The notes under the pieces were generated by a model, which saw only the letters and a program-made list of their open reading frames with translations, searched no databases and was not told the origin of the DNA. A DNA stretch of 64,000 bases from Eledone cirrhosa (lineage: Eukaryota): the NCBI GenBank assembly GCA_964016885.1, contig OZ024740.1, forward strand, positions 214,706,001 to 214,770,000, written 5' to 3'. A program made the translations under genes and the position numbers. Below are positions 2,401-49,100 of the stretch, piece after piece (the stretch's first letter is position 1; every line of letters begins with the position of its first letter).

Positions 2401-2781
2401 ATACATTGGGAGCGTCATGTTGCCAATAAGAACACACGCACCAGTTGCTTTCACTCCAATTTATTATAAATTAAATTATAAATTTAAAAAATTTATATAA
2501 TTCCGGTTGGTTGGTTGGTTCCACAACCGGACGGTTGTTCATATATTGTCAAAGTTCTTTCGTCACACATTCTGTGACCTAATCGGTGACCAGGGATTCT
2601 TTTCTTCGTGCCTCTCCTTTGTTCTGTCCTACGCCATCTTGTTTTTGCGTGTGTTGTGTGCTTAGTTTGCGCATGTGTTATATCCGGGTGTCTGTCTGTG
2701 TCTTTATTTGTTTATTTATTTGTTTATTTACATGTTACTAGTTGGTTGTTTGTTCTATGTGTGTGTCTTTTCATTTTGTCC

Positions 2782-3368
2782 TTAATTGTAAGTTGTGATG
2801 TTGCTATTCCATTCATGTTTTCTATTTAATTTTGGTTGGAGTTCATTTATGTTTATTGCCTCTGTGATTTGTCTAAACATTGCGTCTTTTCTGTGTGTAG
2901 ATTTTATTTTGATTTCTATGTTCTCTAATTTGCCCTTATGTTCTATTTTAGCATGTTGGTGGAGTACAGATGATTCTTTACTATCTTGAAGGTCTCGCCA
3001 GTGTTCATTTAATCGTTCTCCTAGTCTACGAGCTGTCTCACCTATGTACATTATATTTTATCTTTACATTGTCCCTCAGTACATCTTATGCTATATACTA
3101 TGTTTCTAGTTTTGCAGTTAATATGGGGGCTTAGTTTACAGATTATGCATTTCTTATCTATACAGGGAGGTCTTTGAAAAGGGTATGTATTACTAATAAG
3201 TGTTTTTATGGAGGTACCTGGTCTTTCCACTATCTTAATATTTAGTTTAAGTTTATCTAGAGCTCTTCTAAATTTGTAAGCTAGTTCATCTCTAGGGGTT
3301 GTATTGATGAACATTACACTCTGGTATTTATTGCTATCATACCATGAGTTTATTCTATTAAACCAAAA
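2782..3368 (-). pseudogene. PLE ORF C-terminus: Cys-rich linker plus GIY-YIG endonuclease, frameshifted at about 3051
   Basis: SWY..KYQSVMFINTTP...VERPGTSIK..CIDKKCIIC...CKTRNIVYSIRC / YIGETARRLGERLNEH...RQITEAINI...PKLNRKHEW. Confidence 0.9.
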
Positions 3369-3612
3369 TTAAAGAGAAAAAATGAATGGAATAGCAACAT
3401 CACAACTTACAATTAAGGACAAAATGAAATTACACACACATAGAACAAACAACCAACTAGTAACATGTAAATAAACAAATAAATAAACAAATAAAAACAC
3501 ACACAGACACCCGGATGTAACACATGCGCAAACTAAGCACACAGCACACACAAAAAAAAGATGGCGTAGGACAGAACAAAGGAGCGGCACAAAACAAAGA
3601 AAAGAATCCCCG

Positions 3613-3655
3613 GTCACTGATGAGGTCACATAATGTGTGACGAAAGAACTTTGAC
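3613..3655 (+). ncRNA. Minimal type I hammerhead motif in PLE pseudo-LTR
   Basis: GTCA-CTGATGA-G-GTCACA(TAATG)TGTGAC-GAAA-GAAC-TT-TGAC. The mirror copy at about 2547-2590 has a mutated core (CCGATTA). Confidence 0.7.
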
Positions 3656-3865
3656 AATATATGAACAACCGTGCGGTTGTGGAACCAACCAACCAACCGG
3701 AAATTTATAATTTTTTAAAATTTATAATTTAATTTATAATAAATTGGAGTGAAAGCAACTGGTGCGTGTATTTCTTATTGGCAACATGACTCTCCCAAAG
3801 TATAACAATATCGGCTTCAACACACGTTTTCAGATAGAGAATCTTGCTAAACAAATTCAGAAATG

Positions 3866-9059: not shown

Positions 9060-9540
9060 TTTCTCTTTGTTAATTTTCTTAAGTTTATCTAAGCTTAAGT
9101 TTATGTAAGCCATTGCAATAAATGGGTGGGAGAAGAGATAAACACGTTCGTTACATTACTAATGTAACGAACGTGTTTATCTCTTCTCCCACCCATTTAT
9201 TGCAATGGCTTACATTTTTTAACACATCTTACTTTCTTGCATTTTTCTTACTTTTTTTTCTTTGTATTATTCATATCTCGTGCTATAAGAGGCACCACAC
9301 ATTTTCCCTGACGTCATATAAAATTATATGTGTACTTAGCTTAATTGCTATAAATTAGTGTTATGATTCTCACCTCTTACTCCACTGGACAGCATTTGGG
9401 TTATGTCAAATGCTATGACCCCGTGTGAACTAGCAGTGCCGTTGGTACGGGTCGAAACTGCCAAAATCCATCTCAACGGCCGATTACCCTGAAGTTCTGT
9501 GTCCTTCGTTTGTATTTTCTGTGGTTTTATTTTTTTTAAA
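9060..9540 (+). mobile_element. Non-coding repeat family copy with internal 53-bp fold-back (9104-9213) and hammerhead-like motifs
   Basis: Homologous to 27955-28583. Perfect hairpin TGTAAGCCATTGC...ACATT / AATGT...GCAATGGCTTACA. Confidence 0.7.
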
Positions 9541-9588
<48 letters not shown>

Positions 9589-27954: not shown

Positions 27955-27955
<1 letters not shown>

Positions 27956-28583
27956 CAGCACCGTTGGTAGGGGTCGAGCCTGCCAAAGTCCATTTCAACG
28001 TCTGATGACCCTGTAGTTCTGTGTCATTCGTTTGTATTTTTTTTTTTTTTAATCATTTTTAAAGGTTCCCCTTAAAAAACTTGTGTTTTGTTTTGCCTTG
28101 TTTTCGTTCGTTTGTCTTGCCTTGTCTTTGTTAATGTTCATAAGTTTATCATTAATAGTCTGTGCTGAACGTGTTTATCTCTTCTCCCACCTTAATTTAA
28201 ACGATTTACAATTTTTTTAAAACGATATCCTACTTTCTTCTTCATGCTTATTTGCTTTCTTTTTTTTTTTATTTATTTCATTCGTGACTTTCGTGCTATA
28301 AGAGACACCACACTTTTCACTTACATCACATTCAAATTCTATGTGTACTTGCAGCTTAATTGCTATAAATTAAAGTTTTCTCTCTCGTCTCTTCCTCCAC
28401 TGGACTACGTCTGGCTTGTATCAGACGCTGTGACCCCGGCTGGACCAGCAGCAACGCTGGTAGGAGTCGAGACTGCTAAAGTCAATATCAACGGCAGTCC
28501 TTCGTTTGCATTTTTAAAAAATATTTTTTATGGTTTTGTTTTGCCTGGTTTTCGTTCGTTCTCTCTTTGTTAATTTTCCTCAG
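27955..28583 (+). mobile_element. About 1.3 tandem units (period about 490 bp) of the family at 9060-9540
   Basis: CAGCA.CG.TGGTAGG.GTCGAG.CTGC.AAAGTC at about 27956 and 28449. TA-flanked, no ORF. Confidence 0.75.
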
Positions 28584-28662
<79 letters not shown>

Positions 28663-34162: not shown

Positions 34163-34340
34163 ATAATTGTTTCTACTTTAGGCACAAGGCCAGCAATTAT
34201 CCAGTGCATTACTGGTACTTTATTTTATCGACCCCGTAAGGATGAAAGGCAAAGTCAACCTCGGCGGGATTTGAACTCAGATCATAAAGGGACGTAACTC
34301 TATGCTTCAAAGCATGGCATCCGACCCTTACCGATACTGA
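34163..34340 (-). mobile_element. Deu/Nin-type SINE (deleted subfamily)
   Basis: Closely similar to 11271-11460. Confidence 0.9.
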
Positions 34341-34423
34341 TATAACGAAATCTAATATAATGACATGAAACTAACTGAATATTTTTTAAATATGAAATAT
34401 ATACAGCAAAATAAATATATATC

Positions 34424-37400
34424 CTGTATTCCAATGTATTCCAATGTATATCAATGTATTCCAATGTATATCAATGTATATCAATGTATTCCAATGTATA
34501 TCAATGTATATCAATGTATTCCAATGTATATCAATGTATTCCAATGTATATCAATGTATATCAATGTATATCAATGTATATCAATGTATTCCAATGTATT
34601 CCAATGTATTCCAATGTATTCCAATGTATATCAATGTATATCAATGTATTCCAATGTATATCAATGTATATCAATGTATTCCAATGTAAATCAATGTATA
34701 TCAATGTATTCCAATGTATATCAATGTATTCCAATGTATTCCAATGTATTCCAATGTATATCAATGTATTCCAATGTATTCCAATGTATATCAATGTATT
34801 CCAATGTATTCCAATGTATATCAATGTATATCAATGTATATCAATGTATATCAATGTATTCCAATGTATATCAATGTATATCAATGTATATCAATGTATA
34901 TCAATGTATATCAATGTATTCCAATGTATATCAATGTATTCCAATGTATTCCAATGTATATCAATGTATTCCAATGTATTCCAATGTATATCAATGTATA
35001 TCAATGTATATCAATGTATTCCAATGTATTCCAATGTATATCAATGTATTCCAATGTATTCCAATGTATATCAATGTATTCCAATGTATATGAATATATA
35101 TCAATGTATTCCAATGTATTCCAATGTATATCAATGTATTCCAATGTATTCCAATGTATTCCAATGTATATCAATGTATATCAATGTATATCAATGTATT
35201 CCAATGTATATCAATGTATATCAATGTATATCAATGTATATCAATGTATTCCAATGTATTCCAATGTATATCAATGTATTCCAATGTATATCAATGTATT
35301 CCAATGTATTCCAATGTATATCAATGTATTCCAATGTATTCCAATGTATATCAATGTATTTCAATGTATATCAATGTATTCCAATGTATTCCAATAAATA
35401 TCAATGTATTCCAATGTATATCAATGTATTCCAATGTATTCCAATGTATATCAATGTATTCCAATGTATATCAATGTATTCCAATGTATTCCAATGTATT
35501 CCAATGTATATCAATGTATTCCAATGTATATCAATGTATTCCAATGTATATCAATGTATTCCAATGTATATCAATGTATATCAATGTATTCCAATGTATA
35601 TCAATGTATTCCAATGTATATCAATGTATATCAATGTATTCCAATGTATTCCAATGTATATCAATGTATATCAATGTATTCCAATGTATATCAATGTATA
35701 TCAATGTATATCAATGTATATCAATGTATTCCAATGTATTCCAAAGTATATCAATGTATTCCAATGTATATCAATGTATTCCAATGTATATTAATGTATT
35801 CCAATGTATTCCAATGTATTCCAATATATATCATTGTATTCCAATGTATTCCAATGTATATCAATGTATATCAATATATATCAATATATTCCAATGTATT
35901 CCAATGTATATCAATGTATTCCAATGTATATCAATGTATATCAATATATATCAATGTATTCCAATGTATTCCAATGTATATCAATGTATATCAATGTATA
36001 TCAATGTATTCCAATGTATATTAATGTATTCCAATGTATTCCAATGTATTCCAATATATATCATTGTATTCCAATGTATTCCAATGTATATCAATGTATA
36101 TCAATATATATCAATATATTCCAATGTATTCCAATGTATATCAATGTATTCCAATGTATATCAATGTATTCCAATGTATTCCAATGTATATCAATGTATA
36201 TCATTATATATCAATGTATTCCAATGTATTCCAATGTATATCAATGTATATCAATGTATATCAATGTATTCCAATGTATTCCAATGTATATCAATGTATA
36301 TCAATATATATCAATGTATTCCAATGTATTCCAATGTATTCCAATGTATATCAATGTATTCCAATGTATATTAATGTATTCCAATGTATTCCAATGTATT
36401 CCAATATATATCATTGTATTCCAATGTATTCCAATGTATATCAATGTATATCAATGTATAGCAATGTATATCAATGTATTCCAATGTATTCCAATGTATA
36501 TCAATGTAATCCAATGTATATCAATGTATTCCAATGTATATTAATGTATTCCAATGTATTCCAATGTATTCCAATGTATATCATTGTATTCCAATGTATT
36601 CCAATGTATATCAATGTATATCAATATATATCAATATATTCCAATGTATTCCAATGTATATCAATGTATTCCAATGTATATCAATATATTCCAATGTATT
36701 CCAATGTATATCAATGTATTCCAATGTATATCAATGTATTCCAATGTATTCCAATGTATATCAATGTATATCAATATATATCAATTTATTCCAATGTATT
36801 CCAATGTATATCAATGTATATCAATGTATTCCAATGTATTCCAATGTATATCAATGTATATCAATATATATCAATGTATTCCAATGTATTCCAATGTATA
36901 TCAATGTAAGCCAATGTATATCAATCTATTCCAATGTATTCCAATATATATCAATGTATTCCAATGTATTCCAATGTAGTCCAATGTATATCAATGTATA
37001 TCAATGTATTCCAATGTATTCCAATGTATATCAATGTATTCCATTGTATTCCAATGTATTCCAATGTATATCAATGTATTCCAATGTATATAAATGTATA
37101 TCAACGTATTCCAATGTATATCAATGTATATCAATGTATATCAATGTATTCCAATGTATTCCAATGTATTCCAATGTATATCAATGTATGTCAATGTATA
37201 TCAATGTATTCCAATGTATATCAATGTATTCCAATGTATATCAATGTATTCCAATGTATATCAATGTATATCAATGTATATCAATTTATTCCAATGTATA
37301 TCAATGTATTCCAATGTATTCCAATGTATTCCAATGTATATCAATGTATTCCAATGTATTCCAATGTATATCAATGTATTCCAATGTATATCACTGTATT

Positions 37401-40400
37401 CCAATGTATATCAATGTATATCAATGTATTCCAATGTATATCAATGTATATCAATGTATTCCAATGTATATCAATGTATATCAATGTATAACAATGTATT
37501 CCAATGTATTCCAATGTATATCAATGTATTCCAATGTATATCAATGTATATCAATGTATATCAATGTATTCCAATGTATTCCAATGTATATCAATGTATT
37601 CCAATGTATATCAATGTATTCCAATGTATATCAATGTATATCAATGTATATCAATGTATATATAGTATTCCAATGTATATCAATGTATTCCAATGTATAT
37701 CAATGTATATCAATGTATATCAATGTATTCCAATGTATATCAATGTATATCAATGTATTCCAATGTATATCAATGTATTCCAATGTATATCGATGTATAT
37801 CAATGTATTCCAATGTATTCCAATGTATACCAATGTATATCAATGTATTCCAATGTATATCAATGTATATCAATGTATTCCAATCTATATCAATGTATAT
37901 CAATGTTTATCAATGTATTCCAATGTATTCCAATGTATATCAATGTATTCCAATGTATATCAATGTATATCAATGTATATCAATGTATTCCAATGTATTC
38001 CAATGTATATCAATGTATTCCAATGTATATCAATGTATATCAATATATTCCAATGTATTCCAATGTATATCAATGTATATCAATGTATTCCAATGTATTC
38101 CAATGTATATCAAAATATTCCAATGTATATCAATGTATATCAATGTATATCAATGTATTCCAATGTATATCAATGTATATCAATGTATTCCAATGTATTC
38201 CAATGTATATCAATGTATTCCAATGTATTCCAATGTATATCAATGTATGCCAATGTATATCAATTTATATCAATGTATATCAATGTATTCCAATGTATTC
38301 CAATGTATATCAATGTATATCAATATATATCAATGTATTCCAATGTATTCCTATGTATATCAATGTATTCCAATGTATATCAATGTATTCCAATGTGTAT
38401 CAATGTATTCCAATGTATATCAATGTATATCAATGTATTCCAATGTATATCAATGTATATCAATGTATATCAATGTATTCCAATGTATATCAATGTATTC
38501 CAATGTATATCAATGTATTCCAATGTATATCAATGTATATCAATGTATTCCAATGTATATCAATATATATCAATGTATATCAATGTATTCCAATGTATTC
38601 CAATGTATATCAATGTATTCCAATGTATTCCAATGTATATCAATGTATTCCAATGTATTCCAGTGTATATCAATGTATTCCAATGTATATCAATGTATTC
38701 CAATGTATATCAATGTATATCAATGTATTCCTTGTATTCCAATGTATATCAATGTATATCAATGTATTCCTTGTATTCCAATGTATACCAATGTATATCA
38801 ATGTATTCCAATGTATATCAATGTATATCAATGTATTCCAATGTATATCAATGTATATCAATGTATATCAATGTATATCAATGTATTCCAATGTATATCA
38901 ATGTATTCCAATGTATATCAATGTATTCCAATGTATTCCAATGTATATCAATGTATATCAATGTATTCCAATGTATATCAATGTATATCAATGTATATCA
39001 ATGTATATCAATGTATTCCAATGTATTCCAATGTATATCAATGTATTCCAATGTATATCAATGTATTCCAATGTATATCAATGTATATCAATGTATATCA
39101 ATGTATATCAATGTATTCCAATGTATATCAATATATATCAATGTATTCCAATGTATTCCAATGTATATCAATGTATTCCAATGTATATCAATGTATATCA
39201 ATGTATATCAATATATATCAATGTATTCCAATGTATTCCAATGTATTCCAATGTATATCAATATATTCCAATATATATCAATGTATTCCAATGTATATCA
39301 ATATATATCAATGTATTCCAATGTATTCCAATGTATATCAATATATTCCAATGTATATCAATGTATTCCAATGTATATCAATATATATCAATGTATTCCA
39401 ATGTATTCCAATGTATATCAATGTATTCCAATGTATATCAATGTATTCCAATGTATATCAATGTATTCCAATGTATATCAATGTATATCAATATATATCA
39501 ATGTATTCCAATGTATTCCAATGTATATCAATGTATTCCAATGTATATTAATGTATATCAATGTATATCAATGTATTCCAATGTATATCAATGTATATCA
39601 ATGTATATCAATGTATTCCAATGTATATCAATGTATTCCAATGTATATCAATGTATATCAATGTATTCCAATGTATATCAATGTATATCAATGTATTCCA
39701 ATGTATATCAATGTATATCAATGTATTCCAATGTATATCAATGTATATCAATGTATTCCAATGTACATCAATGTATATCAATGTATTCCAATGTATATCA
39801 ATGTATATCAATGTATATCAATGTATTCCAATGTATATCAATGTATTCCAATGTATATCAATGTATTCCAATGTATATCAATATATATCAATGTATTCCA
39901 ATGTATATCAATGTATATCAATGTATTCCAATATATTCCAATATATATCAATGTATTCCAATGTATTCCAATGTATTCCAATGTATATCAATGTATTCCA
40001 ATGTATATCAATGTATTCCAATGTATATCAATGTATATCAATGTATATCAATGTATTTCAATGTATTCCAATGTATTCCAATGTATATCAATGTATATCA
40101 ATGTATTCCAATGTATATCAATGTATATCAATGTATTCCAATGTATATCAATGTATATCAATGTATTCCAATGTACATCAATGTATATCAATGTATTCCA
40201 ATGTATATCAATGTATATCAATGTATATCAATGTATTCCAATGTATATCAATGTATTCCAATGTATATCAATGTATTCCAATGTATATCAATATATATCA
40301 ATGTATTCCAATGTATATCAATGTATATCAATGTATATCAATGTATTCCAATATATTCCAATGTATATCAATGTATTCCAATGTATATCAATGTATATCA

Positions 40401-43400
40401 ATATATATCAATGTATTCCAATGTATTCCAATGTATTCCAATGTATATCAATGTATTCCAATGTATATCAATGTATTCCAATGTATATCAATGTATTCCA
40501 ATGTATATCAATGTATATCAATGTATATCAATGTATATCAATGTATTCCAATGTATTCCAATGTATATCAATGTATATCAATGTATATCAATGTATATCA
40601 ATGTATATCAATGTATTCCAATGTATTCCAATGTATATCAATGTATATCAATGTATATCAATGTATATCAATGTATATCAATGTATTCCAATATATATCA
40701 ATGTATTCCAATCTATTCCAATGTATATCAATGTATTCCAATGTATATCAATGTATTCCAATGTATATCAATGTATTCCAATGTATATCAATGTATACCA
40801 ATGTATTCCAATGTATATCAATGTATATCAATGTATTCCAATGTATATCAATGTATTCCAATGTATATCAATGTATATCAATGTATATCAATGTATTCCA
40901 ATGTATTCCAATGTATATCAATGTATATCAATGTATATCAATGTATTCCAATGTATTCCAATGTATATCAATGTATTCCAATGTATATCAATGTATTCCA
41001 ATGTATATCAATGTATTCCAATGTATATCAATGTATATCAATGTATTCCAATGTATATCAATGTATATCAATGTATATCAATGTATTCCAATGTATTCCA
41101 ATGTATATCAATGTATATCAATGTATTCCAATGTATTCCAATGTATATCAATGTATTCCAATGTATATCAATCTATTCCAATGTATTCCAATGTATATCA
41201 ATGTATATCAATGTATATCAATGTATACCGATGTATTCCAATGTATATCAATGTATATCAATGTATTCCAATGTATATCAATGTATATCAATGTATTCCA
41301 ATGTATATCAATGTATATCAATGTATATCAATGTATTCCAATGTATATCAATGTATATCAATGTATTCCAATGTATTCCAATGTATATCAATGTATATCA
41401 ATGTATTCCAATGTATTCCAATGTATATCAATGTATTCCAATGTATATCAATCTATTCCAATGTATTCCAATGTATATCAATGTATATCAATGTATATCA
41501 ATGTATACCGATGTATTCCAATGTATATCAATGTATATCAATGTATTCCAATGTATATCAATGTATATCAATGTATTCCAATGTATATCAATGTATATCA
41601 ATGTATATCAATGTATTCCAATGTATATCAATGTATATCAATGTATATCAATGTATTCCAATGTATATCAATGTATATCAATGTATTCCAATGTATATCA
41701 ATATATATCAATGTATTCCAGTGTATATCAATGTATTCCAATGTATATCAATGTATATCAATGTATATCAATGTATTCCAATGTATTCCAATGTATATCA
41801 ATGTATTCCAATGTATATCAATATATATCAATGTATATCAATGTATATCAATGTATATCAATGTATATAAATGTATTCCAATGTATATCAATGTATTCCA
41901 ATGTATATCAATGTATTCCAATGTATACCAATGTATTCCAATGTATATCAATGTATATCAATGTATTCCAATGTATACCAATGTATATCAATGTATATCA
42001 ATGTATTCCAATGTATATCAATGTATTCCAATGTATACCAATGTATATCAATGTATATAAATGTATTCCAATGTATATCAATGTATTCCAATGTATACCA
42101 ATGTATTCCAATGTATATCAATGTATATCAATGTATTCCAATGTATATCAATGTATTCCAATGTATATCAATCTATTCCAATGTATACCAATGTATTCCA
42201 ATGTATATCAATGTATTCCAATGTATATCAATGTATATCAATGTATTCCAATGTATACCAATGTATTCCAATGTATATCAATGTATATCAATGTATTCCA
42301 ATGTATATCAATGTATTCCAATGTATATCAATGTATTCCAATGTATACCAATGTATTCCAATGTATATCAATGTATATAAATGTATTCCAATGTATATCA
42401 ATGTATTCCAATGTATATCAATGTATTCCAATGTATACCAATGTATTCCAATGTATATCAATGTATTCCAATGTATATCAATGTATTCCAGTATATCAAT
42501 GTATTCCAATGTATACCAATGTATTCCAATGTATGTCAATGTCTTCCAATGTATATCAATGTATATCAATGTATTCCAATGTATATCAATGTATTCCAAT
42601 GTATATCAATGTATTCCAATGTATACCAATGTATTCCAATGTATACCAATGTATTCCAATGTATACCAATGTATTCCAATGTATATCAATGTATTCCAAT
42701 GTATACCAATGTATTCCAATGTATATCAATGTATTCCAATGTATATCAATGTATATCAATGTATTCCAATGTATATCAATGTATTCCAATGTATACCAAT
42801 GTATTCCAATGTATATCAATGTATATAAATGTATTCCAATGTATATCAATGTATTCCAATGTATATCAATGTATTCCAATGTATACCAATGTATTCCAAT
42901 GTATATCAATGTATTCCAATGTATATCAATGTATTCCAATGTATATCAATGTATATCAATGTATTCCAATGTATATCAATGTATTCCAATGTATATCAAT
43001 GTATTCCAATGTATACCAATGTATTCCAATGTATATCAATGTATTCCAATGTATATCAATGTATTCCAATGTATATCAATGTATATCAATGTATTCCAAT
43101 GTATACCAATGTATTCCAATGTATATCAATGTATATCAATGTATTCCAATGCATATCAATGTATTCCAATGTATACCAATGTATTCCAATGTATATCAAT
43201 GTATATCAATGTATTCCAATGTATACCAATGTATTCCAATGTATATCAATGTATTCCAATGTATACCAATGTATTCCAATGTATATCAATGTATATCAAT
43301 GTATTCCAATGTATATCAATGTATTCCAATGTATATCAATGTATATCAATGTATTCCAATGTATATCAATGTATATCAATGTATATCAATGTATATCAAT

Positions 43401-43710
43401 GTATTCCAATGTATATCAATGTATTCCAATGTATACCAATGTATTCCAATGTATATCAATATATATCAATGTATTCCAATGTATATCAATGTATTCCAAT
43501 GTATATCAATGTATATCAATGTATATCAATGTATATCAATGTATTCCAATGTATATCAATGTATTCCAATGTATACCAATGTATTCCAATGTATATCAAT
43601 ATATATCAATGTATATCAATGTATTCCAATGTATATCAATGTATTCCAATGTATACCAATGTATTCCAATGTATATCAATGTATATCAATGTATTTCAAT
43701 GTATATCAAT
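34424..43710. repeat. 10-bp satellite, about 9.3 kb, two interspersed unit types
   Basis: ATGTATATCA and ATGTATTCCA. Phase slips near 37661, 38731, 38771 and 42491. Confidence 0.99.
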
Positions 43711-44068
43711 AGATATACCTTGAGTTGTTATAAATTCATTCTACATAAACATTAATCTAAGTTACGTCTAATTGAATGAGATTCCTACGTAATATTATAT
43801 TAATTTATACAGTTCTACACACTTATGGAGCACTTTGGTAGATTTTGCATAAACATGTATTTCTGCGACATTTTAAGCTCCATAAAGTTGTACTTAAAGC
43901 TGTATAAATTAGTATAATATTATCTAGCTAACTGTATTAAAAGCTATTCTAGGAATATGCATTAAAATAAAAGTTTATGTGCACTAAATTAAGAGCAGCT
44001 GAAAGTACATACACACAAATGGATGACATATATATTTATTTCAATATACTTTCAGCTGATTTTGAGGT

Positions 44069-44132: not shown

Positions 44133-44185
<53 letters not shown>

Positions 44186-44187
<2 letters not shown>

Positions 44188-45024
44188 CAATATGTTGAAA
44201 AGGTAACACACTGGAGAGAGATACGGTGCGCCATCAATAAAACAGTGAAAAACCACCAGTGTATGGAATCTATAACCTATGAAAGGCAGAATATAGACAC
44301 GATAATTAAAAATATAAATTAAAGCGTAAACAAATACCTCTATAACTATATAACACACGTACAAATCCAAAGTGATTTGTTTCGCCAGTAAGTTGTTGAC
44401 AGAAATGAAATAACCCAGGTTCATCAGCGTGTTTAAGGTTATACATTTCAGACAACTATGGCTCCGTTAATGTATCGTGATATTTCACTCCTTATAACAG
44501 TATTTCCTCTCTCTCTGTTTGGTTGAGCGCACTTCTCTGAGTGGTTTGGGGCTGCCCTTTCTAGCAGCTCGTCTCTCAGAGGCCACTGGTTCACTGCCCT
44601 TAAACACGCTGTGACTTCTCTCTCCCACGTGTAGTTGGACAGTCTCTTTAAAAATTCTCTTAGTGTTGTCTGAAATGTATAACCTTACACACGCTGATGA
44701 ACTTGGGTTATTTCATTTCTGTCAAAAACTTACAGGCGAAACAGATCACTTTGGATTTGTACGTGTGTTATATAGTTATAGAGGTATTTATTTACGCTTT
44801 AATTTATATTTTTAATTATCGTGACTATATTCTGCCTTTCATAGGTTATAGATTCCATACACTGGTGGTTTTTCACTGTTTTATTGATGGCGCACTGTAT
44901 CTCTCTCTAGTGTGTTACCTTTTCAACATATTGTATTTTAAAGAGCTCAGGATTTCCTCTCCTTTGAGCACATTATTTACAGGGAACGGCGAGAGTCTAT
45001 GGCCCCGTTAATGTATCGTGATAT
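44186..45024. mobile_element. Non-coding PLE/retrozyme-like element: 270-bp inverted arms (44186-44456, 44665-44935), each with a hammerhead
   Basis: Arms align throughout. 28-bp direct repeat at 44456-44483 and 44997-45024. TA/TG-flanked. Confidence 0.85.
44687..44768 (+). ncRNA. Type I hammerhead ribozyme (mirror copy at 44355-44432 on the minus strand)
   Basis: ACACACG-CTGATGA-aCTTG...CAGGc-GAA-ACAGATC(ACTTTG)GATTTGT-A-CGTGTGT: 7-bp stems I and III, GUA site after 44761. First stem II pair is an A/C mismatch. Confidence 0.85.
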
Positions 45025-45868: not shown

Positions 45869-46090
45869 GTAGGTTGAGGAAAAAGAGGAAGAGAGGAAGG
45901 GAGTACTCACTCTTGGTGCTCCTGGAGATGAGGGTTGTATATTTTTTCGGGGTGTGTACAACATCCTCCCTATTAGGGATTTCAATTGTTATTTGTTATT
46001 GTATTAATAGTTATTTTTCATATACGTGTATGTAAACTCCCCATTTGTATTTGTCCCCTTCTTTTGTGCCCTTGTGGCTAATAAAGAAAT
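45869..46090 (+). mobile_element. 3' UTR stub of a related Tx1-type LINE in (TATC)n
   Basis: Homologous to 48885-49150 (TGTAAACTCCCCATT..TTGTCCC..TTTTG.TGCCCT.GTGGC.AATAAA). TATC repeats on both sides. Confidence 0.8.
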
Positions 46091-46108
46091 TTATCTATCT
46101 ATCTATCT

Positions 46109-49100
46109 GGTTGGCTATTCAGACCACAAGTTAGTGACCTGCATGGTCAACCTTGACAGAACTCATAGACAGGGACCCGGTTACTGGAAGCTCAACTTGT
46201 CCTTACCGGCAAGTAAGGCTTACAGGGACCGGATTAGCTCTTTAGTTAAGGAACGGTTGACGGGCGCCATCGTCAACAGCAGGTGGTGGGGATCTCTCAA
46301 AAGAGAGATTAGAGTAGTCTCTATAGAATTTAGTAAGGAGTTAGCCTCCAATAGAAATAGGAAGGAAAGGGAGTTGGTAGATAGTGTAGAAGAGGCAATT
46401 AGAAGCGGCGACGTGGCCAGAGTGCTAGCGTCGAGAACGGCCCTGGGCCAGTTCTTCGACGCGAAACACGAAGGCTGCATCGTCCGAATCAAAATACGTG
46501 CTCTGGGAAACGAGGGGACCAAAGCTGTTAGCTGGGCCCGCGTGACAGAAGCCAAAAGAGGGAGCAGATCCACTATCCGGTCTTTGCGAGACCAGGATGG
46601 ACGGGTGATCCTTGAACCTAAGCAGATGTGCGAGGCTTTTCAAAAGCACTTTGCCGGATTGTTCGGAAGGGGCGGGGGGCCGGTTGGGGATGTGGACTTC
46701 GGTCCATACCTCGACGGCCTGCCGCGTCTCTCGGACAGGGGGGCGAAGTCCTGCGAGGAGCCGATTTCAGCCGCTGAGATAGAGGACGTGCTGAGCCAAT
46801 GCGGCAAACGCAAATCCCCGGGTCTCGATGGTCTTCCATACGAACTATATCTAGCTATGCCGGACTTGTTCCCCGATCTCCTCGAGGCGGTCTACTGCAA
46901 CTGGCAACAGAACGGGAGAATTCCCTGTGCTGTGACCAAGGCGTAATCACGCTAGTGAGGAAGGACGAGAACAAGGGGACGATGTAAATAATTTCAGGCC
47001 CATAACTCTGCTAAATACAGAGTTACAGATTTTGTCCAAGGTGCTAGCAAAGAGGTTGGCGCTTGTCGTGGGCAACCTGGTGGGAGATGCGCAGACATGT
47101 GCTATCCCGTCCAGGTCCATCCACGATAACCTCCACCTCATGCGATACATCATAGAGAGGGTTGGGAACGAACCCGGCTTTGGTGGGGCCCTGATCAACT
47201 TGAATCAATCTAAGGCATTCGATAGGGTCGACCATGGTTACCTGGATGCGGTGCTAGCGGCGGCAGGCTTCGGACCCGTTTTCAGGGGCTGGATCAATGC
47301 CATGCACAGCAGCCGCATCTGCTCTAGGGTCAAGGTGAACGGCTACCTCTCGGAGCCGTTCGAAATTGCGCGGTCCATCCAACAGGGGTGCCCACTCTCC
47401 TCCCTTCTGTATGTAATGACTCTAGAGCCACTGCTGCGGAAGTTGGAGTTGTTGCAGGGCATCCCGTTGGAACCGGGATTGCGGAAAGCGGTGTCAGCCT
47501 ACGCCGATGACGTAACAGTAATGGTATCGACGGCCTCGGAAATCGGGGCGATCGGCACCTTACTGGAGGAGTACGAAAGGTTTACAGGGGCTAAGCTGAA
47601 CCGGGACAAGTCGATCGGTCTGCAACTCGGCACGTGGAGGGGAAGATCGATGCCCTTCGACGATGGCGTCGTCGGGCGCTGAACGGAGGGCCCGGTGAAG
47701 TTGCTCGGGGTCTGGTTCGGACCAGACCTCCAGGTGGAGAAGAACTGGGGTGAGGTGACGAACAGGGTGTTTGCACTGACCCAGAAGTGGGCCGAGTGCA
47801 AACTGTCCATGAAAGGTCGGGCGGAGGTGGCGAACACTTATATAGCGTCCGTCATCTACTACCGCCTGACCGTTGTGCCTTGCCCAGGGGAAACGCTCGC
47901 CAAAATGGAGCGCGCACTCTTCCAATTCCTTTGGAAGAAGCGGGCTCCTATGGTGAGGAGATCCATCTGCTGTCAACACCCTTCGAAAGGAGGGCTGGGG
48001 ATGCCGTGGCTAATGATACGTAAACACGCATTAAGGCTACGGCACCTTCAGGTATTCCTCTCCGGTCAACCGGTGTGGGCCCCGTTTGTGAGGCGAGCCT
48101 TTCCCAGACTCGTCTCACTCACCGAGCTGCAATCCTGGGTCAAGCAAAGACCGAGAAAACTGGGCGCCTGGCACACCGAGTGTGCCCAGGAGCTCACGGC
48201 TCTCTGACAGGCGGACCCGGCTGTCAGTGGAGAATCCACCTCGTCATTCTATAGAGGGCTGGTGGTTAGCAGGTGCGACGACGCCCTCGGAGAAGCCCTA
48301 GGCATTGAGGAAGACGAACTGGCCAACCTGTTCGGTAGGACATTCAGCCCGGGACCCATGGATAACTTCCAGAGGTCCCTGGCCTGGCAATGCTACAGAA
48401 GGGCTCTGCCCGTTCGAGAAAGGCTCTACAGACACGGGCGCCCGGGTAGGGACCCATCGAAAAAGATCTGTCCCAGATGCGTGTGCGACGAGGAAACCGT
48501 TGCACACGCATTGGTACACTGCTCGGGCATTGCCGATCTGTGGGGCTATGTCGAACAACTGCTGTCAAGGGTGGGACCGATCCGGTTGACCACCGAGTCT
48601 ATTGTAACGATCAAGCCGCCGCCCCCCTCTTCAAAAACGAAGGAGAGGCGGTGTTTCTGTGCGTAATAGCCATGGCGAAAGAGGTTGTATGGTGGACGCG
48701 TCTGAAAGGACTGAGGTCAGACACCTTTCTCTCTGGCCAACAACTGGTCCGTTTCTTCCGATATCATTTCGGAAGAAGGATCAGGATGGAGAGAGAGGTG
48801 CTGCACCCCAGCCGTTTCTATGAAAGATGGGTGAAAGTGGCGAGAATGGCCCGTGTGAATGGGCCTTCACTCTACATCAGACTATAGGTGAGGAAGATGA
48901 AAGACCAAGGGAGCACCCCTTCTCTGTGCTCCTGAGGAGAAGGGTTGCACACTTTTTTCGGGGGGGGTGTGCGACCCCCCAAGGCGCCTCTTCTCTAGTG
49001 AGGACTTTGTTATAAATTTTATTTTTTGTTATATTTTATTTTATTTTTATATATTGTTATTGCCTCCTCCTTATTGAGGACGCCTTGTTTTGTAAACTCC

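Follow-up and report, generated by a model that had tools for sequence, protein, structure and literature searches.

The window analysed here, a 64,000-nucleotide stretch of the 3.0-Gb, microsatellite-rich genome of Eledone cirrhosa, holds three related motifs, all of them dead copies of one dispersed, non-coding Penelope-like repeat with a true unit length of 476 bp. On balance, the founder of this decayed repeat probably folded into a self-cleaving hammerhead with a rewired backbone and a predicted cut after a GUA triplet. In the supported fold the end of the catalytic strand, A9, is not covalently joined to G10.1 of stem II, and two further helices, P0 and the hairpin H1, bridge the gap. 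These pairings are present in the family majorities and are accompanied by covariation, and the occurrence of three such motifs in the window is far beyond chance.

Read from 5′ to 3′, the strands of the fold follow in the order P0, H1, stem II (beginning with G10.1), joining helix, block S, a 3-nt linker, block G, the partner of the joining helix, the stem I strand with C3-A9, and the partner of P0 (Table 1). No base is left over in the bridge, as A9 leads into P0, P0 adjoins H1 and H1 adjoins G10.1. In the family majority stem II consists of six Watson-Crick pairs, with G10.1-C11.1 as the first, directly before GAAA. Stems I, II and III close the core, with the pairs 1.1-2.1, G10.1-C11.1 and A15.1-U16.1 in place, and the nested part of the model reaches -37.6 kcal/mol. 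The predicted cut would fall after window position 9438, the last base of the triplet at 9436-9438 that corresponds to GUA. The weakest element in this genome is P0, which forms 2-3 pairs beside A9. We also note a predicted 18-bp AT-rich hairpin at about unit positions 148-188 (window about 28030-28080), downstream of the ribozyme and ahead of the unit's 3′ end.

Table 1. Window coordinates of the predicted fold and of the two repeat insertions (motif numbering counts window position 9380 as 1)
Feature	Window position	Strand	Motif numbering	Remarks
Predicted split-block hammerhead fold, decayed copy	9380-9494	+		
P0 clamp, 5′ strand	9380-9388	+	1-9	Pairs with 9487-9494; 6 of 8 pairs here; 7-10 bp in metagenome families
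P0 clamp, 3′ strand	9487-9494	+	108-115	Directly after A9
Hairpin H1	9389-9416	+	10-21/26-37	Lies between P0 and stem II and contains the strands of the nested type-I fold discussed in the text; 10 of 12 pairs here, 12 bp in family
Stem II strand starting with G10.1	9417-9422	+	38-43/69-74	Pairs with 9448-9453; five of six pairs here, all six in the family majority
Helix joining the ends of stems I and II	about 9424-9430	+	44-51/87-94	Pairs with about 9466-9472; 4 of 7 pairs here
Block S	9433-9444	+	Stem III 54-58/78-82; H17 59; stem I 60-65/95-100	Stem III strand 9433-9437; H17 9438 (A in family, G here); stem I strand 9439-9444
Block G	9448-9461	+	GAAA 75-78	Stem II strand 9448-9453; GAAA 9454-9457; stem III strand 9457-9461
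Stem I strand and core strand C3-A9	9474-9486	+	C3-A9 101-107	Stem I strand 9474-9479; core strand 9480-9486, CCGAUGA in family, G8 mutated here
28-bp tail copying the repeat 3′ end, upstream of insertion 1	9062-9089	+		100% to family majority
Inverted, 5′-truncated repeat piece	9103-9164	-		Forms the 9103-9215 palindrome
Forward copy of the 476-bp repeat	9154-9545	+		3′ end incomplete, then (TA)n; 84% to family majority; motif 9380-9494
5′-truncated copy after (TA)n tract	27956-28157	+		Blocks S, G and core strand only (27955-28016); U16.1, A14 and A15.1 mutated
Second, near-full unit of insertion 2 (partial tandem)	28161-28588	+		Motif 28395-28497, core strand deleted after 28497; then (TA)n/(TG)n

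A test of the fold comes from an older family (family 2), which was found in this genome by a relaxed pattern and of which 24 copies were aligned. The initial annotation had proposed covariation of the helices as a check. The repeat of the window (family 1) and family 2 differ at 16 positions, yet none of 39 pairs is broken and three changes are double-sided (two in H1, one in stem I). Random placement of the differences breaks 8.1 pairs on average and leaves all pairs whole in 1 of 200,000 trials. The two families were aligned by sequence over motif positions 8-109, outside of which lies the outer part of P0, with a register shift of 1 nt. Within family 1, the differences between subfamilies sit in loops or preserve pairs, with P0 positions 5 and 110 as the exceptions, and the variable joining-helix pair 46-92 appears as G-U (47), A-U (38), G-C (17) and A.C (4).

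Further relatives were found in metagenomes, where a core-only pattern matches at least 119 loci, 38 of which form two repeat families (X and Y). The majorities of both families agree with the full fold descriptor although their helix sequences differ, and 7 of the 38 single copies agree with it strictly. The descriptor is matched by none of 81 unrelated metagenome loci among the matches listed, by none of 50 viral pattern matches and by 1 of 20,000 core-fixed shuffles, and the family 1 pattern itself has 0 matches in metagenomes. In all six family majorities the core positions are in register together with G10.1-C11.1, A15.1-U16.1 and the GUA triplet. Double-sided changes across these six majorities occur in five of six paired columns in stem I, two of six in stem II, three of five in stem III, four of six in H1 and one of three in P0, counts that arise partly by construction, with registers taken from the descriptor and the majorities representing two lineages only. 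The weight of the argument is carried by the comparison of families 1 and 2 and by the viral and shuffle controls. The complete hammerhead core is found in family 2 and in families X and Y; family 1 departs from it by a U4C change, and the three window copies have lost it. Indeed, the copies are mutated, as the initial annotation observed, with catalytic positions lost in all three: in copy 1, H17 has become G and G8 has become U, and copies 2 and 3 carry changes at U16.1 and A14. The window copies are dead relics.

The window motifs belong to an old and widely dispersed family. A search with a window copy gave 1455 candidates in the 3.0-Gb genome, 40 of which were scored, with 39 other places 84-87% identical to the query; a better copy gave 2776 candidates, the best other copy being 90% identical. 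Family 1 was aligned from 127 distinct copies, 116 of them spanning the motif, a set enriched for intact cores as many loci were picked by core patterns. Median divergence from the family majority is 10.2% and the minimum is 4%, which marks the family as old. No coding sequence was found in the 476-bp unit.

The initial annotation counted three copies of the motif. The three related motifs are real, but those at 27955 and 28420 lie in a single partial-tandem insertion flanked by microsatellites, the former missing the motif's 5′ half, the latter its CUGAUGA strand, and the motif placed at 9400 begins 20 bases earlier, at 9380. The anatomy of the insertions is Penelope-like, combining 5′ truncation, partial tandem, a tail, an inverted 5′ copy, a microsatellite target and no ORF, the features of a non-autonomous Penelope-like element. 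Tails of 30-40 bp are described for Penelope-like insertions (PMC8557442). Across a sample of 30 loci, chosen by the 3′ part of the repeat, a microsatellite directly follows the repeat 3′ end in 27, partial tandems occur in five and most insertions have one full motif. The 5′ ends are scattered from unit position -140 to 221; a pile-up at the predicted cut, sought in these 30 loci, is absent, with five of the 5′ ends at unit 47-71. The inverted 5′ piece seen in the window occurs in none of the 30.

An autonomous partner with matching sequence was sought in this genome and not found. At L013, L046, L081, L033 and L035 the repeat 3′ end is immediately followed by a 5′-truncated Penelope ORF, and several Penelope families are represented. 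Those just downstream at L013, L046, L081 and L035 were considered as partners and rejected, as they come from more than one family and are not themselves followed by a repeat copy; the downstream ORFs probably inserted later at the same AT-rich target. Remnants of Naiad-like motifs are present in this genome (L193, L196-L198), with no linked ORF found, and the exact octopus-Naiad motif pattern has 0 matches in it. Small shares of sequencing runs gave no copy of the repeat in four of four runs, and then none in three of four; the remaining run, which ranks best in content of the repeat, is of unrecorded kind, possibly the source sample, and is not independent. None of the RNA runs contained the element. 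Elsewhere the window contains an array of more than 900 copies of a 10-bp unit (34265-43750), a broken non-LTR retrotransposon ORF on the forward strand (46011-48663) with RVT_1 (E 6.5e-24) and zf-RVT, and long inverted repeats (2431-3772 and 44185-44936) with arms of 179-272 nt that are 94-97% complementary and are possibly fold-back elements or inverted Penelope insertions.

Core position 4 merits separate consideration, as it lies in a CpG. Among 28 copies picked regardless of the motif, position 4 is C, with C>T in four and G>A in four, and neither rate is higher than at seven other CpGs. Exact core patterns number 55 for CCGATGA, 27 for CTGATGA and 8 for CCAATGA, so that in some copies a genuine U4 may be inherited. 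Two letters of the consensus given in the initial annotation, the T at this position and a stem I letter of the nested type-I fold considered below, are minority states at CpG sites. U4C is present in all three family 1 subfamilies and is likely derived, since family 2 has the canonical CUGAUGA. This substitution reduces hammerhead activity in vitro, yet a viroid that carries it stays infectious (PMC3088659).

Hammerheads with permuted strands have been described by Eckert et al. (2023), who define blocks C, G and S in a scheme of six permutations that takes the blocks to be uninterruptible; cleavage was shown for types SGC, CSG and GCS, with none from an animal genome in the available text (PMC10085705). 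The order S-G-C is therefore already published as type SGC (PMC10085705), while a split of block C was not found in print. The literature searched, with few subscription papers among it, yielded no description of a split block C or of a permuted hammerhead in Naiads, and the available part of PMC10162972 contains no extra-helix hammerhead.

Type SGC (HRIMA-1 and variants) shares with the present motif the order of block S, block G and the CUGAnGA strand, the double pseudoknot, a linker of about 3 nt between stems I and II, and a helix joining the ends of those stems (7-10 bp here); a short linker and a joining helix are features of the tested SGC and CSG ribozymes (PMC10085705). The motif differs in that block C is split, with the stem II strand upstream and P0 and H1 bridging A9 and G10.1, whereas the 5′ and 3′ ends of SGC are joined by 2 nt, and in that it resides in an animal retroelement, whereas SGC is reported, in the text available, from metatranscriptomes only (PMC10085705). 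Published descriptors demand CUGAUGAG or CUGAUGAUG before stem II (PMC10085705), a sequence that the motif lacks at that place, and a contiguous block C (CUGAUGA, then G or UG and stem II) is absent from all six majorities. Since the register adjacent to A9 mismatches in all six, the motif is not a member of type SGC, though it is predicted to work like one. With type CSG, known from two metagenome sequences (PMC10085705), it shares the cyclic order and the joining helix, and can be described as a CSG opened between A9 and G10.1: CSG has CUGAnGA and stem II contiguous, without P0 or H1, whereas here block C contributes just its stem II half ahead of block S. An extra base between positions 9 and 10.1 is known from Penelope hammerheads (PMC4209133). 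Non-LTR retrozymes (PMC7229834; 10.64898/2026.07.22.740005) and minimal Penelope hammerheads (PMC4209133) resemble the repeat as short non-coding, Penelope-linked units with a hammerhead, but theirs are nested type-I forms in tandem arrays, whereas the present motif is pseudoknotted and mostly single. A retrozyme carries a type-I hammerhead in every tandem unit and is expressed as circular RNA; here the fold is pseudoknotted and tandems occur in 5 of 30 loci.

A further link is to the Naiads, which were reported without canonical hammerheads, some being marked 'HHR_core' or 'HHR_half_core' (Craig et al., 2021, PMC8557442). By eye, a matching architecture is recognisable in at least 9 of 54 Naiad consensuses, from six unrelated sequence families, at the places in File S5 (PMC8557442) that were covered (CTGATGA 55 of 62, TCGAAAC 17 of 17, GCCGAAA 12 of 23, GTCGAAA 12 of 13). 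These are Naiad_Bfor, Naiad_Amil, Aacu, Anas, Naiad_Obim and Ovul, together with one record each in the Clytia part, part 12 and part 19, placed by file part only. In these nine, P0, H1 and stem II abut with 0-1 nt between them, again by eye, and the two metagenome families closely resemble the Acropora Naiad motif. Three further records (Naiad-3_Nbra, a nematode record in part 15 and Naiad_Smim) read by eye as intact type-CSG hammerheads with a joining helix, a type for which two sequences only are published in the available text of PMC10085705. The 3′ ends of Naiad-1_Skow and Naiad-1_Pfla carry a different common motif with GAAA and were not parsed as the split fold. The insertions, too, resemble those of Naiads in 5′ truncation, partial tandems, an inverted 5′ piece, the tail and (TA)n targets, and the nine consensuses end in the fold. 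Unlike Naiads, the repeat here has no ORF, and the likeness rests on the motif and the insertion anatomy. We consider it quite likely that the fold is a seventh natural hammerhead wiring, in which catalytic strand and stem II are non-contiguous and bridged by two stacked helices; that Naiads from ctenophores to molluscs have it, alongside the intact type-CSG forms, as their missing ribozyme; and that animal genomes are accordingly rich in non-circularly permuted ribozymes, which change into one another within a single retroelement lineage.

Other readings of the same sequence were considered. The initial annotation had proposed an interleaved double hammerhead, whose first, nested type-I fold would cut at GUC (window 9466-9468 region). 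A CUGUGA word, the GUC and a 3-bp stem can indeed be read in the sequence, but the full CUGAnGA and open stem I of a nested type-I hammerhead are not found there: the core is one base short, its strand and the short core are swallowed by the 12-bp H1 hairpin (pair probability 1.0; -17.8 kcal/mol as a duplex), and the fold reaches -3.6 kcal/mol (-8.0 with the T assumed in the consensus) against the far lower value of the supported model, with a pair probability of 0.0 for stem I. Of the 116 full-span copies, 83 have C.A and 25 have U-A at a stem I pair of this fold, the U arising at a CpG, and neither family 2 nor the metagenome families keep the fold, which leaves this reading scarcely credible. 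The second proposed fold fared better, in that the hammerhead core and stems I and III stand, while stem II uses the upstream GACCCC strand and not the strand after the core; this stem's first two pairs account for the supposed extra bases ahead of GAAA. Its strand order, outside the circular permutations and pseudoknotted, is retained in the supported model. Twister, HDV-like and pistol folds were rejected on what we take to be their strand orders. No Rfam ribozyme family appears among the 150 of 293 window matches listed, nor among the four for the better copy; Rfam models cannot express this strand order. A plain type-SGC hammerhead would result if stem II came from the strand that immediately follows the core, possibly alternating with the upstream strand in the manner of a switch; in subfamily 1a the downstream strand does form six pairs with the stem II strand. 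Those pairs, however, consume G8 and A9 and so represent an inactive alternative in family 1, the A9-adjacent register mismatches in all six majorities, and the pairing fails wholly in families X and Y. This arrangement is very improbable, and a switch is unsupported as a conserved feature.

The main rival to a single folded RNA keeps the same pairings and chemistry in a strand-swapped dimer: the long hairpin of stem III and the joining helix in one copy would pair through its loop with the flanks of another copy, either a tandem neighbour or a second RNA. In its favour, the joining helix and stem III are connected on both strands, by 2 and 4 nt in family 1, and in families X and Y, with a stem III of 8-14 bp, one strand has 0 nt at this place; the 14-bp stem III of family Y continues straight into the joining helix on that strand. 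Stem III in some relatives is presumably too long, at the helix dimensions we assume, for easy fold-back in one RNA. Partial tandems are common, and minimal Penelope hammerheads act as dimers (PMC4209133). Against the dimer, cleavage is known for SGC-2, whose 8-bp joining helix and 2-nt linker come close to those of family 1 (PMC10085705), most insertions have one full motif, and two octopus Naiads show, by eye, a kink-turn pattern at the junction that would aid fold-back of a single RNA. This pattern places a 3-nt bulge and tandem G.A where stem III meets the joining helix and is seen at the 3′ ends of Naiad_Obim and Naiad_Ovul; family 1 has a 2x4 loop at that site. We regard the dimer as unlikely. 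It is less probable still that the fold was conserved for another job, such as reverse transcriptase binding, without cleaving, or that family 1 is a crippled U4C passenger. The presence of U4C in the three family 1 subfamilies, the broken A9-G10.1 link and the missing pile-up of 5′ ends at the cut would fit such a role, but the core letters, G10.1-C11.1 and the NUH triplet remain fixed while the helices turn over completely (for Naiads by eye), and cores are canonical in family 2 and the Naiads.

For the self-cleaving, single-RNA hammerhead that we favour, P0 and H1 would stack end to end and keep A9 beside G10.1 without a covalent link, and the RNA would fold on itself as type-SGC and CSG ribozymes do. 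Predicted cleavage of tandem or read-through transcripts would then release unit-length RNA, possibly circularised, which a Naiad-type reverse transcriptase would copy in trans into (TA)n tracts. We infer that a Naiad was the mobiliser.

If the fold cleaves, it would break the assumption, on which the six permutations rest, that CUGAnGA and its stems are uninterruptible, and would explain why descriptor searches missed it. The break between A9 and G10.1 would offer a new insertion point for ribozyme engineering, and the series from CSG to split forms would be a natural system for studying the evolution of RNA permutations. Non-circular permutations would pass from unknown environmental RNAs to animal genomes, in thousands of copies. 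Cleavage would also overturn the view that Naiads lack hammerheads, which has been the basis for regarding such ribozymes as perhaps dispensable passengers of Penelope-like elements.
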